A stretch of DNA of 64,000 nucleotides from Escherichia coli (GTDB lineage Bacteria; Pseudomonadota; Gammaproteobacteria; Enterobacterales; Enterobacteriaceae). This document shows positions 33,048 to 40,320 of this stretch, in pieces (the stretch's first letter is position 1; the number at the start of each line of letters is the position of its first letter). The notes under the pieces are model-generated. The model had not been told where the DNA came from. It did no database searches and was given only the letters and a program-made list of their open reading frames with translations. The stretch lies in the NCBI RefSeq assembly GCF_001677475.2, contig NZ_CP015229.1. The stretch is one strand, 5' to 3'. The position numbers were made by a program, and so were the translations under genes.

Positions 33048-34232
33048 ATGAAAAGGCATAGAAACGTCAATTTGTTATTGATGTTGGTATTACTCGTGGC
33101 CGTCGGTCAGATGGCGCAAACCATTTATATTCCAGCTATTGCCGATATGGCGCGCGATCTCAACGTCCGTGAAGGGGCGGTGCAGAGCGTAATGGGCGCT
33201 TATCTGCTGACTTACGGTGTCTCACAGCTGTTTTATGGCCCGATATCCGACCGCGTGGGTCGCCGACCAGTGATCCTCGTCGGAATGTCCATTTTTATGC
33301 TGGCAACGCTGGTCGCGGTCACGACCTCCAGTTTGACGGTATTGATTGCCGCCAGCGCGATGCAGGGGATGGGCACCGGCGTTGGCGGCGTAATGGCGCG
33401 TACTTTGCCGCGTGATTTATATGAACGGACACAGTTGCGCCATGCTAACAGCCTGTTAAACATGGGGATTCTTGTCAGTCCGTTGCTCGCACCGCTAATC
33501 GGCGGTCTGCTGGATACGATGTGGAACTGGCGCGCCTGTTATCTCTTTTTGTTGGTTCTTTGTGCTGGTGTGACCTTCAGTATGGCCCGCTGGATGCCGG
33601 AAACGCGTCCGGTCGATGCACCGCGCACGCGCCTGCTTACCAGTTATAAAACGCTTTTCGGTAACAGCGGTTTTAACTGTTATTTGCTGATGCTGATTGG
33701 CGGTCTGGCCGGGATTGCCGCCTTTGAAGCCTGCTCCGGCGTGCTGATGGGTGCGGTGTTAGGGTTGAGCAGTATGACGGTCAGTATTTTGTTTATTCTG
33801 CCGATTCCGGCAGCGTTTTTTGGCGCATGGTTTGCCGGACGTCCCAATAAACGCTTCTCCACGTTAATGTGGCAGTCGGTTATCTGCTGCCTGCTGGCTG
33901 GCTTGCTGATGTGGATCCCCGACTGGTTTGGCGTGATGAATGTCTGGACGCTGCTCGTTCCCGCCGCGCTGTTCTTTTTCGGTGCCGGGATGCTGTTTCC
34001 GCTGGCGACCAGCGGCGCGATGGAGCCGTTCCCCTTCCTGGCGGGCACGGCTGGCGCGCTGGTCGGCGGTCTGCAAAACATTGGTTCCGGCGTGCTGGCG
34101 TCGCTCTCTGCGATGTTGCCGCAAACCGGTCAGGGCAGCCTGGGGTTGTTGATGACCTTAATGGGATTGTTGATCGTGCTGTGCTGGCTGCCGCTGGCGA
34201 CGCGGATGTCGCATCAGGGGCAGCCCGTTTAA
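33048..34232 (+). CDS. emrD: MFS multidrug efflux transporter
   Basis: 394-aa 12-TM MFS protein from MKRHRNVNLLLMLVLL. Confidence 0.85.
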   Translation: MKRHRNVNLLLMLVLLVAVGQMAQTIYIPAIADMARDLNVREGAVQSVMGAYLLTYGVSQLFYGPISDRVGRRPVILVGMSIFMLATLVAVTTSSLTVLIAASAMQGMGTGVGGVMARTLPRDLYERTQLRHANSLLNMGILVSPLLAPLIGGLLDTMWNWRACYLFLLVLCAGVTFSMARWMPETRPVDAPRTRLLTSYKTLFGNSGFNCYLLMLIGGLAGIAAFEACSGVLMGAVLGLSSMTVSILFILPIPAAFFGAWFAGRPNKRFSTLMWQSVICCLLAGLLMWIPDWFGVMNVWTLLVPAALFFFGAGMLFPLATSGAMEPFPFLAGTAGALVGGLQNIGSGVLASLSAMLPQTGQGSLGLLMTLMGLLIVLCWLPLATRMSHQGQPV

Positions 34233-34239
34233 GCTCACG

Positions 34240-34737
34240 TCACCGCAGCATCGTCATCAGCTCCATGGGAGAACGATGCTGCTTTATCAGATCACGCATT
34301 ACCCGCATATGCGGTGCGGAGTAAGAATAAAATGCCTGATAGCCCGCACAAAGCACGTTGTCTGGCGTCTCCTCCCGAGCGTGCGGACACAGCCGATGCC
34401 AGTCGCACGCCTGGCAGTCACGGCGCGATTGCGGGTTTTCGCTGCCACACCATTTTTGTAGGGTGGCGTCAAAAAGCTCAATCGAAATACGACTGATATC
34501 TGCCCGCACCCAACACTCAAACAGGGCAATTAAAAATTTCCCCCACAGCTCTGCTGTCACCGAAGCGGCCGTCATATCGCCCCGGTCATCAAATTCAAGA
34601 TGGGGAATGAGCTGTACGGAGCGGATGCCCCGTTGTTTGAAATTGTGATAAAAATCGGCAGGTTGCAGAGCATCCTTGTACTCTACAACCAGTTTATGCC
34701 TGTCCTCTTCAGCATCAATGACCTGACTTCCTGTCAT
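34240..34737 (-). CDS. yidF: Cys-rich protein YidF (radical-SAM/SPASM-like C-terminal Cys cluster)
   Basis: 165-aa ORF; synteny with yidGH. Confidence 0.65.
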   Translation of the reverse strand: MTGSQVIDAEEDRHKLVVEYKDALQPADFYHNFKQRGIRSVQLIPHLEFDDRGDMTAASVTAELWGKFLIALFECWVRADISRISIELFDATLQKWCGSENPQSRRDCQACDWHRLCPHAREETPDNVLCAGYQAFYSYSAPHMRVMRDLIKQHRSPMELMTMLR

Positions 34738-35096
34738 GCGACTCTCTCAATAAATACGATAAGTTGATGTATATGCGTTACAGCAAACAGTATTGCGAGA
34801 GATAACACCGCGAGGGAGATCAAAAATTTGTCACGGACTACGTGAAATTGGGAAAAATCGCTATTCGTGACATCCATTAAATTGCGATTACGGGTGTAGT
34901 GCCAGAGGATCAGCGCCACGATGGCGAGGATGCCAATCGAAATCCAGAATAACATGCCCGCCTGGTGCCAGTTGTGTTTGATAGCCAACGCCATCAACGC
35001 GCCGTAGCCCAGCATGGTACGAAACCACGCCAGTGATGTGCGCTCCGGCTGCAGCCCTGGGTCGGCAATGCGTCTGGCTTTGCGGCTATCCGGCAT
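34734..35096 (-). CDS. yidG: Inner-membrane protein YidG
   Basis: 120-aa, three predicted TM helices; 4-nt overlap with yidF. Confidence 0.65.
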   Translation of the reverse strand: MPDSRKARRIADPGLQPERTSLAWFRTMLGYGALMALAIKHNWHQAGMLFWISIGILAIVALILWHYTRNRNLMDVTNSDFSQFHVVRDKFLISLAVLSLAILFAVTHIHQLIVFIERVA

Positions 35097-35433
35097 ACAA
35101 CACCAGTCCCATAACGATCACCGCCACGACCATCAATATTAAGCTGATGATTAATAAGCTGTTGGTATAGGGCAGGTCCTCTTTCAGACGCATCGCTTTT
35201 TCATTGCGTAACCAGCGCAAGTAGCCATACATCGCTAACCCGCCGGAAAACAGACACAACAACAACGCCAGCAGTTCGCGAATGACGGGCGTGGCGAAAT
35301 CTGGCGCAAGTTGGTCAAGCCCAACCCCCGCCGCCAGAAATCCTAGTGCGGTACGGATCCACGCCAGAAAAGTACGCTCATTAGCCAGCGAGAAGCGGTA
35401 ATCGGGCGCTTCTCCGAGGCGGGAAATTTTCAT
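35086..35433 (-). CDS. yidH: Inner-membrane protein YidH (DUF202)
   Basis: 115-aa membrane protein overlapping the yidG start. Confidence 0.65.
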   Translation of the reverse strand: MKISRLGEAPDYRFSLANERTFLAWIRTALGFLAAGVGLDQLAPDFATPVIRELLALLLCLFSGGLAMYGYLRWLRNEKAMRLKEDLPYTNSLLIISLILMVVAVIVMGLVLYAG

Positions 35434-35603
35434 TGTTGCTCCTTTGCAATTTCACTAACGCTCTATCTTTAGCGGTTTTTTTTAAGAATTTCGTCCGCCC
35501 GTTTCCTGATATGCTTTTGCCATCCGCTGCAAGGAGGTCAGATGGGTATCATAGCGCAAATTGACATCCTCCACGCCCTGAAGGACGAGGATCCCTGCTA
35601 CGT

Positions 35604-36812
35604 TCAGGCTGTCGCCTGAATCATTTCGGTGGGTTCCTGCTTCAACGAGCGGCCTGACTGCACCATCTCTCCACAGGCAAGAACGGCGTGCCCCGCCGCT
35701 AAAATGTTACGAGCGCCATTTACATCGGCGTTCGCTGTATATCCACATACCTGGCATCTGAATTTACTTTGTGACAGGCGATTTTCTTTCGCTGTATGAC
35801 CACAGCACGCGCAACGCTGGCTTGTGTACGCTGGCGGAACAGCAAGCACCTGACCGCCACTCCAGAGCTGCTTGTACTCAAGCTGGCGGCGCATTTCATA
35901 CCAGCCCTGATCCAGTATCGTACGGTTTAAACCTGATTTTGCCCGGACATTGCGCCCCGGCTGGCTGACCGTACCCGCTGCTGACTTTGACATGTTGCTG
36001 ACCTTCAAATCCTCAATGACTATCATTGCGTGGTTTTTACTGACGGTCGTTGTGACTTTGTGAAGGTAGTCCCTGCGGATATTTGCGATACAGGAATGCA
36101 GTCGCTGTATTTTGCGTTTCTGCTTCTGCCAGTTGTTGCTGAATTTGACCTTGCGGCTTAACTGTCGCTGAAGTCTCGCCAGCGTCTTCTGGTTTTTCTG
36201 AAAACTGTTTACAGGCCCAAAGACTGTGCCATCTGACAGCGTGGCGAGTTTAGCCACGCCAGCATCCAGCCCGACCATTGATGCTGAAGGGTGAACCGGA
36301 GTTGATACTTCACTTTCAGTCTGAATACTGATGTACCACTTACCGCAGGACTGGCTGACAGTGACATTTTTCACAACACCCGTGACCTGACGGCTATTCC
36401 GGTAGCGCATCCAGCCAAGTTTCGGCAGAAAAATACGGCTTTTTTCCTGATCGAGCTTAACGCCCTGCGGGTAGCGGAATGCATCATTCTGTCCCCGCTT
36501 TTTGAATCGGGGAAAAGCAGCCCGCTTCTGGAAGAAGTTTTTGTAAGCCCGCTCAAGGTCTTTCAGTGACTGTTGCAATGGCTGTGAGGGCGAATCTTTA
36601 AGCCATTGCATTTCAGTGGCGTTTTTCCACTCAACCAGCCAGGAAGCCATTTTCCCGTAAGGGATGTATTTATTACCGGCCTCATGATTCTCATTCTGAA
36701 GCGCCAGAGCACGATTGAAAACGAAACGACATGCGCCTGCGAAGCGCCTCATTTCACGCTCCTGTTGGCCACCTGGTCTTAACTGGAATTTAAATGCCTG
36801 TAGTCGTTTCAC
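35604..36812 (-). CDS. tnpB: TnpB (OrfB) RNA-guided endonuclease-like protein, RuvC-like plus zinc finger
   Basis: 402 aa; N-terminal [16 protein letters not shown]...FNRAL; C-terminal CxxC...CxxC (CACCGH...CQVCGY). Confidence 0.85.
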
Positions 36813-36819
36813 AGGCCAA

Positions 36820-37251
36820 ATGATACTTTGGTCTGTGAATAAAGAAACCGATATCCGACGGGGAAGGCATTGTGTTTTCCTGATGCATGTTCACCTGGTC
36901 TTTGTCACCAGATACCGACGTCAGATTTTTGACTATGACGCGACAGAAAAACTACGCACTTACTTTTCAAATGTATGTGCTGATTTTGAAGCTGAACTGG
37001 TTGAAATGGATGGCGAACCAGATCACGTCCATTTGTTAATTAACTATCCTCCCAAACTGGCGATATCCAGTCTGGTAAACAGCCTCAAAGGCGTATCGGG
37101 TAGGTTACTGCGACGAGATCGACCAGATATTGCAGTCAGGTATTACTACAAAGGCGTTTTGTGGAGTCCTGGCTATTTTGCCAGTAGCTGCGGAGGTGCG
37201 CCAATATCCGTCATCCGCCAATACATTGAACAAAAGCAAACACCTGGTTAA
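36820..37251 (+). CDS. tnpA: IS200-type Y1 (HUH) transposase TnpA
   Basis: HCVFLMHVHLVFVTRYRR (HUH motif) and catalytic Tyr region; start chosen at MILWS inside the longer ORF. Confidence 0.8.
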   Translation: MILWSVNKETDIRRGRHCVFLMHVHLVFVTRYRRQIFDYDATEKLRTYFSNVCADFEAELVEMDGEPDHVHLLINYPPKLAISSLVNSLKGVSGRLLRRDRPDIAVRYYYKGVLWSPGYFASSCGGAPISVIRQYIEQKQTPG

Positions 37252-37381
37252 GTGGAAAACCTCGCCTTATATCCCCGCCCTGAAGGACGGGGTTTTACGG
37301 CGCACCGGATAAATTTGGTTATGCGCCGTCAGCCGTGCTGAAGAATAGGGACCAGCACCCAACGGATGCCAGTCCACACAA

Positions 37382-40320
<2,939 letters not shown>

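Follow-up and report, generated by a model that had tools for sequence, protein, structure and literature searches.

What occupies the interval between yidH and the glv genes in the Escherichia coli contig NZ_CP015229.1 (assembly GCF_001677475.2), and how did the genes that E. coli K-12 carries there (in the order yidH, yidI, yidJ, yidK, yidL, glvG) come to be absent? The stretch analysed here comprises 64,000 nucleotides of this contig (henceforth the window; positions given without an accession are window positions). An initial annotation, made from the sequence alone, had placed an IS200/IS605-family insertion sequence (IS) with a TnpB gene at 35560-37300; the element is real, and its ends were found at 35561 and 37308 (Table 1). 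The joint explanation to which we assign a probability of about 0.9 is that 35561-37308 is a full-length IS609 with intact genes and a guide RNA predicted at its right end, which was inserted in yidL and whose right end was joined to downstream DNA in a transposase-type reaction.

Identity, genes, and ends of the IS609 copy

The ends were placed where homology to genomes with other arrangements at the site breaks off, i.e., at 35560/35561 and 37308/37309. The active (“top”) strand of the element corresponds to the window minus strand, so that the left end (LE) is position 37308 and the right end (RE) position 35561. Between these borders, the window was 97.9% identical to a copy in FORC_041 (NZ_CP016628.1, 2129599-2131346), with which it was colinear across 1,748 bp with zero gaps and the same termini, and for whose tnpA product (WP_024203821.1) the RefSeq name is “IS200/IS605-like element IS609 family transposase.” The 37 substitutions between the two copies change 3 of 143 TnpA and 13 of 402 TnpB residues. 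The copies agree in the divergent gene order, in the 7 bp that separate the start codons, in the first bases of LE (CCGGTGCGCCGTAAAACCCCG) and the last of RE (GGAGGATGTCAA), and in having a TTAT target; they differ in location, as the FORC_041 copy sits between yeaQ and a DUF1869 gene (yeaQ/yoaG), whereas the window copy lies at yidL/yidI and is accompanied by a 4.67-kb deletion. ISfinder lists IS609 as an IS200/IS605-family element of E. coli, and the identification, based on near-identical DNA and the same ends, is indirect in that it was judged through the RefSeq-named FORC_041 copy and not through the ISfinder record. The two ends enclose both genes and are colinear with RefSeq IS609 over the full length, i.e., they belong to one IS, as had been assumed beforehand.

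Megablast detected element-like sequence in 5,083 of 5,426 complete E. coli genomes, the median number of places per genome being 4. Proteins identical to the TnpA and TnpB of the window were present in NCBI on 55 contigs (TnpB, e.g., as EFI6952718.1, and others), and the yidH/glv context was identical to that of the window in all of the 24 contigs that were read. The window element is an ordinary, catalogued insertion sequence, and the allele has already been sequenced and deposited in GenBank. In a 2026 study (PMC12781874), nine orthologues were purified, an IS609 TnpB among them. Lone matches of 42-43 nt to the LE or RE hairpin region, with the rest of the element absent, were observed on the E. 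coli plasmids NZ_AP035758.1 (29869-29910) and NZ_AP042571.1 (38075-38117), one of them adjoining a recombinase gene; these isolated matches may be what is left of element ends, or mobile units that consist of the hairpin alone.

The two divergent genes proposed initially, a Y1 tnpA and a tnpB with RuvC-like and zinc-finger motifs, were recovered consistently by Pfam, NCBIfam, and structure alignments. TnpA matched positions 1-120 of the 121 positions of Pfam Y1_Tnp (E = 1.2e-40) and reached 144.6 bits against NCBIfam transpos_IS200 (cut-off 55). Its HUH motif is H69-V-H71 within DHVHLL, its catalytic tyrosine is located C-terminally in RQYIEQ, and the HUH histidines as well as the tyrosine were present when TnpA was aligned to the IS608 and ISDra2 TnpA structures. 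A longer version of tnpA, a 178-amino-acid open reading frame (ORF) with a TTG start (36715-37251), was rejected, because the domain does not begin until residue 48 and the annotated homologue uses the ATG at 36820 as its start. TnpB matched the Pfam families HTH_OrfB_IS605, OrfB_IS605, and Cas12f1-like_TNB, scored 383.6 bits against NCBIfam guided_TnpB (cut-off 100), and hit the structures of ISDra2 TnpB (8bf8, 8ex9, 8h1j) with a phmmer E-value of 1.1e-52. The RuvC triad D183, E267, and D363 aligned with D191, E278, and D361 of ISDra2, and the zinc-finger cysteines C334, C337, C353, and C356 (CxxC...CxxC) were all kept. TnpB is therefore a predicted RNA-guided nuclease with intact catalytic motifs, and a hidden inactivation of tnpB, which would have spoken against the initial annotation, was not found.

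The 14-nt motif CGCCCTGAAGGACG, noticed earlier near both ends in direct orientation, occurred in exactly two copies in the window (35574-35587 and 37276-37289, both plus strand), and a repeat search returned a 21-nt direct repeat of 90% identity (35570-35590 and 37272-37292), each copy of which is self-complementary. The motif is the apical half of the LE and RE subterminal hairpins and not a terminal repeat, and the direct orientation of its copies is what the IS200/IS605 family requires. On the top strand, with a slash marking the element border, the left junction reads AAATTTAT/CCGGTGCGCCGTAAAA-CCCCGTCCT-TC-AGGGCGGGG and the right junction TCCTCGTCCT-TC-AGGGCGTGGA-GGATGTCAA/TTTGCGCTATGATACC. 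There was no target duplication, the flanks AAATTTAT and TTTGCGC being different. Related elements were collected by a TnpB-based scan with one genome per species, which yielded 34 loci (the window plus 33) from about 25 species, including Citrobacter, Serratia, Yersinia, Morganella, Xenorhabdus, Photorhabdus, Klebsiella, and Pantoea. In these 34 loci, the two helices of the RE hairpin (helices 6 and 7 of the structure described below) were 97.5-98% paired and showed compensatory changes, and the terminal GAGGATGTCAA of RE was invariant (34/34).

The related elements adjoin YTTAY, and 15 independent insertions next to TTAY were available for a comparison of the target with the tetranucleotide located 5' of the LE hairpin (left guide tetranucleotide, G_L). 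The last bases of the two covaried, with TTAT facing AAAA in 8 insertions, TTAC facing AAAG in 5, and 2 exceptions; 13 of the 15 hence obey the rule known from IS608, in which AAAG recognises a TTAC target and cleavage on the right occurs at TCAA (PMC3201880). The window element resembles IS608 of Helicobacter pylori in its Y1 HUH TnpA, its subterminal hairpins on one strand, the identical right cleavage site TCAA, and a target matched to the tetranucleotide 5' of the LE hairpin (TTAC with AAAG in IS608, TTAT with AAAA in the window element, and TTAC with AAAG among the relatives of the latter). The end spacing of the two is also similar (window vs. IS608: 16 vs. 19 nt at LE, 9 vs. 10 nt at RE). 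They differ in gene order, tnpA and tnpB being in tandem in IS608 and divergent in the window, and the TnpA proteins (phmmer E = 1.1e-18) are related at the family level only. A Y1 HUH TnpA, same-strand subterminal hairpins without terminal inverted repeats, the missing target-site duplication, and the guide-tetranucleotide rule jointly place the element in the IS200/IS605 family, within which it belongs to the group whose tnpA and tnpB diverge. Relatives in Photorhabdus and Klebsiella pneumoniae formed a second subfamily, which has a RAGATH-18-like core and identical last 12 nt of RE together with a longer, different terminal hairpin region and the left end CTCCAAAGGGTA, and which adjoins CTTTAT, CTTTAC, or CTTAAC.

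Table 1. Positions of the IS609 copy and its parts in the window (top strand of the element = window minus strand)
Feature	Position	Strand	Basis
IS609 element (IS200/IS605 family), complete, 1,748 bp	35561..37308	minus	flank-homology breaks and colinearity with a named IS609 copy
tnpB, 402 amino acids, GTG start	35604..36812	minus	Pfam/NCBIfam and ISDra2 TnpB alignment
tnpA, 143 amino acids, Y1 HUH transposase, ATG start	36820..37251	plus	Pfam/NCBIfam and TnpA structure alignment
Target/target-adjacent motif (TAM) TTTAT (top strand), outside the element, in the retained yidL 3' end	37309..37313	minus	compared with intact yidL of MINF_1A and K-12
Left guide tetranucleotide G_L, AAAA (top strand)	37293..37296	minus	immediately 5' of the LE hairpin foot; predicted to pair with TTAT
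LE subterminal hairpin CCCCGTCCT-TC-AGGGCGGGG (top strand)	37273..37292	minus	read from the sequence; conserved in 18 related loci
RE subterminal hairpin TCCTCGTCCT-TC-AGGGCGTGGA (top strand)	35570..35591	minus	helices 6 and 7 of the tested RNA structure
Right cleavage tetranucleotide TCAA	35564-35561	minus	follows the RE hairpin and GGATG
Predicted guide-RNA (omega RNA/right-end RNA, reRNA) scaffold	35561..35699	minus	covariation in 34 loci
RAGATH-18-like core of the scaffold	35634-35677	minus	sub-threshold Rfam match
Covarying synonymous Ala/His codon pair	35680-35699 (alignment columns 75/81)	minus	34-locus alignment
Predicted 16-nt guide TTTGCGCTATGATACC, flanking DNA	35545..35560	minus	conservation ends at the RE boundary

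The predicted guide RNA and its proposed use

A guide RNA had been expected downstream of the tnpB 3' end, at around 35450..35620. The predicted guide and the last hairpin do fall within this range; the predicted scaffold lies mostly inside tnpB, overlapping the last ~95 nt of the coding region as well as RE. A structure of 40 pairs was built manually and tested on the 34-locus alignment, with partners slid by 1-3 columns and 500 shuffles as controls. Standard pairs made up 93.0% of cells (slid partners: 39-52%), and compensatory changes were found in 17 pairs (slid partners: 3-8) and 76 cells (slid partners: 3-18); none of the 500 shuffles reached any of the observed pairing measures. Helix 4 (CCC with GGG) was weak at 73.5% paired and is not trustworthy. 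Within tnpB, the third positions of an alanine codon (GCR) and a histidine codon (CAY) pair with each other, as A-U in 19 loci and G-C in 14, with one exception; this synonymous covariation is not explicable by protein coding and thus indicates a constraint on RNA structure. Conservation ended exactly after GGAGGATGTCAA in the 34 loci, and the sequence beyond was unrelated in every locus. These comparative data support a structured right-end RNA that overlaps the tnpB 3' end, ends at the element boundary, and is the predicted guide RNA of TnpB.

Two computed alternatives to the manual structure were set aside. The register of the single-sequence minimum free energy fold for the terminal hairpin, including an AGGA/UCCU pairing, was dropped due to its conflict with the comparative structure, and the RNAalifold consensus was replaced, as it missed the central long hairpin (owing to alignment gaps) and its pairing of columns 43-47 with 220-224 is invariant and without covariation.

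Guide RNAs (reRNAs) of IS607-family TnpBs are derived from RAGATH-18, which forms their core (PMC11061315). The window scaffold is similar to RAGATH-18 in that both of the corresponding stems, the outer one (CCUGU/GCAGG) and the inner one, showed covariation across the 34 loci; the published link, in contrast, is with IS607 elements, which encode a serine recombinase, whereas the window element has a Y1 TnpA. Likeness was also found to ISDra2 of Deinococcus radiodurans, whose TnpB is of similar size with RuvC triad and zinc finger aligned, and whose RNA extends over the 3' end of tnpB and the right end and takes its guide from the flank, an arrangement predicted from sequence for the window RNA. 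The RNAs of both elements are unrelated in primary sequence, and the TAM is TTTAT in the window compared to TTGAT in ISDra2.

The predicted guide is reverse-complementary to nucleotides 4-19 of yidI, and in the intact gene its sequence comes directly after TTTAT; elsewhere in the 64-kb window, there was no other exact match and none with fewer than three mismatches. As tnpB and the predicted RNA are co-oriented with the downstream genes yidH-yidG-yidF, read-through into that operon is possible.

Based on work on IS608, ISDra2, and related systems, the following cycle can be proposed. TnpA would bind the hairpins on the lagging-strand template and locate the cleavage sites through base pairing between TTAT (left) or TCAA (right) and the tetranucleotide on the 5' side of the respective hairpin, excise the top strand as a circle, and reinsert it 3' of another TTAT. 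The RE-LE junction of the circle is predicted to read GATGTCAA/CCGGTGCG (also written GGAGGATGTCAA/CCGGTGCGCC), and the sealed donor site AAATTTAT/TTTGCGCTATG. TnpB would be loaded with the right-end RNA, the last ~16 nt of which (TTTGCGCTATGATACC) come from the flank, and would cut TTTAT followed by TTTGCGCTATGATACC, i.e., either the donor site after sealing or a yidI allele that is unoccupied, such that the element would be copied back and retained. That TnpB cutting favours retention of the element is the model of bioRxiv 10.1101/2023.03.14.532601.

Junctions of the missing yid genes

As initially annotated, the element stands at the yidH/glv junction in place of yidI-yidL. Comparison with other genomes, which had been suggested for this junction, identified TTTAT in yidL as the target and delimited the deletion: 4,666 bp of K-12 sequence are absent, from codon 7 of yidI to 75 bp before the yidL stop codon. 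On the left, the element joins yidL at TTTAT in the manner of a normal insertion. On the right, however, the flank is not the continuation of yidL but the sequence that follows another TTTAT in intact yidI (GATTTTAT/TTTGAGCTATG), and the yidI remnant adjoining RE (35542-35560) consists of the first 19 nt of the gene (ATGGGTATCATAGCGCAAA). A second allele, present in LHM10-1 and 15 further genomes, has the same left junction with RE joined to yidJ, which corresponds to a shorter deletion; the joined yidJ sequence follows CAGTTAC in intact genomes.

The 5,426 complete E. coli genomes were searched for each junction specifically. RE/yidI, the form of the window, was found in 288 genomes (including E. 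coli C, ATCC 8739, and WG5) and RE/yidJ in 16. The three junctions expected of simple insertions, namely RE/yidL (GGAGGATGTCAA/TTTTAAAGGCTTTGC), yidI/LE (GATTTTAT/CCGGTGCGCC), and yidJ/LE, were found in none of them. The window allele is old and vertically inherited, and it is carried by about 5% of complete E. coli genomes.

Both right-end flanks, in yidI and in yidJ, directly follow TTAY on the active strand of the element, for which the chance expectation is ~1/128 each and ~6e-5 jointly. The junctions hence suggest that the transposase itself made the deletion. Most likely, the deletion goes back to one insertion in yidL and transposase-type joining of the right end downstream: IS609 would first have been inserted once, at TTTAT in yidL, and the resident right end would then have been joined, once or twice, to a downstream target site. 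The initial annotation had associated the insertion with the loss of the genes. The element does replace yidI-yidL, but we infer that the genes were lost separately, in one or two right-end-anchored events, and not as a by-product of simple insertion.

More specifically, the nested deletions might record a one-ended TnpA reaction, in which the resident RE and a downstream TTAY on the same strand were cut and joined and the intervening DNA was lost as a circle; we offer this as a tentative proposal, rated below even odds. If true, it would add a site-specific, right-end-anchored adjacent deletion activity to the repertoire of IS200/IS605 transposases. In a targeted literature search, the phrase “adjacent deletion” was not found together with IS608 or TnpA.

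Counter-evidence and alternative explanations

Several observations weigh against the explanation given at the outset. With regard to the RNA, only two Rfam hits were obtained at permissive thresholds, both below gathering and used as leads, not as evidence of membership: RAGATH-18 (RF03064), of which the window is not a member at 29.5 bits (gathering 44.9, E = 0.011), with the 71-position model matched end to end, and HgcC (RF00062; 35548-35671, minus), of which it is not a member either at 19.3 bits (gathering 50, E = 0.24). The single-sequence fold of the 220-nt right end was weakly better than that of shuffles (z = -2.18), the RE hairpin stem contains one U/U mismatch in the window copy, and in a promoter and terminator scan, hits did not exceed those in shuffles and no sigma-70-like promoter stood out for tnpA, tnpB, or the RNA. 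With regard to movement, the only IS609 copy of K-12 never moved in mutation-accumulation lines (PMC5009759), and a dead tnpA was found at the same locus in three other strains. In E. coli C and LHM10-1, tnpA carries a -1 frameshift (window position 36866) and a TAA (~37003); in A30, it has a different TGA (37106) and has lost the normal stop codon. The lesions are shared by E. coli C and LHM10-1 and the right junctions of the two are different, so that recombination or gene conversion is needed under any scenario. Moreover, how and in what order the deletions occurred is inferred and not observed.

The window tnpA is free of all these lesions, and the annotation gives an intact tnpB for E. 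coli C and A30 and one with an internal stop for LHM10-1. Intact ORFs are nevertheless no proof of mobility, and the element may be a fixed fossil. In this alternative, IS609 would be an immobile remnant at the locus whose genes are intact because decay has not yet arrived, with TnpB and its RNA possibly persisting for a host-level role or for selfish retention. Its identical position in 288 genomes is in line with this, as are the inactivation of tnpA at the locus, independently at least twice, the tnpB annotated as intact beside a dead tnpA in E. coli C and A30, and the immobility of IS609 in the K-12 lines. Against it stand the full-length window tnpA with HUH motif and catalytic tyrosine, only 3 residues away from RefSeq IS609 TnpA, the hairpins, G_L, TAM, and TCAA, which are all in place, and the fact that E. 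coli strains carry IS609 at several different sites on chromosomes and plasmids. We regard a fixed remnant as a real possibility, yet as the less probable state of the element.

Of the complete genomes, A30 was closest (98.9% over 7.6 kb). Compared with E. coli C, it differed at 6 of 1,561 bases in the left flank (34000-35560) and at 41 of 1,748 inside the element, i.e., about six times more; this excess of interior divergence could be due to relaxed constraint or to gene conversion from other IS609 copies. An attempt to order the two deletion forms by pairwise counts of single-nucleotide polymorphisms among four same-locus alleles was abandoned, as the pattern was mosaic and gave no clear order.

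For the gene loss itself, homologous recombination between two or three IS609 insertions in the same orientation (in yidL and yidI, and in yidJ for the variant of 16 genomes), leaving one hybrid copy, is the main, though less probable, alternative to right-end joining after a single yidL insertion. It would explain why every junction looks like an insertion, with TTTAT/LE in yidL and RE followed by post-TTTAT yidI or post-GTTAC yidJ, and deletions by recombination between IS copies have been documented in E. coli (PMC5009759). It would, however, require three insertions in the same orientation within 4.7 kb by an element with few, mostly fixed copies (genomes had a median of 4 matching places, and no copy transposed in the K-12 lines of PMC5009759), and it is unsupported because none of the three simple-insertion intermediates was found in any of the 5,426 genomes; one insertion followed by right-end-anchored deletions takes fewer events.

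A deletion unrelated to the element, i.e., an illegitimate event that ended at the IS by chance, would fit a region that also varies without the IS, but is very unlikely because two independent right junctions begin exactly at the last base of RE, each joined to post-TTAY sequence, so that both breakpoints carry the TTAY signature. As for that variation, MINF_1A has yidH directly followed by yidJ, with yidI missing and no IS609 at the locus, and in B2 strains homology to the window is lost from 35444 onward; the yidH-yidJ interval is hence variable independently of the element.

The locus is a clean natural example of deletion endpoints with the target signature of the transposase, which makes transposase-made, right-end-anchored adjacent deletions a testable idea, and this is the only lead of wider interest from it. 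On the element itself, little is left to discover, given that IS609 has a catalogue entry, others have already purified its TnpB, and the allele is in GenBank. The analysis does map IS609 to the exact base, from its ends, hairpins, and TTAT target to the guide tetranucleotide, RNA scaffold, and guide, supported by covariation from about 25 species, and the lineage of the window, in which both genes are intact where three other strains have lost tnpA, is a natural candidate for tests of IS609 activity. For genome annotation, it explains why E. coli C, ATCC 8739, and their relatives lack yidI, yidJ, yidK, and yidL.

On the other side of the element, the genes for a 6-phospho-alpha-glucosidase (37382-38704, minus, 440 amino acids) and for a phosphotransferase system (PTS) EIICB component (38704-40320, minus) are intact in the window, and their K-12 counterparts are annotated as frameshifted or with an internal stop.

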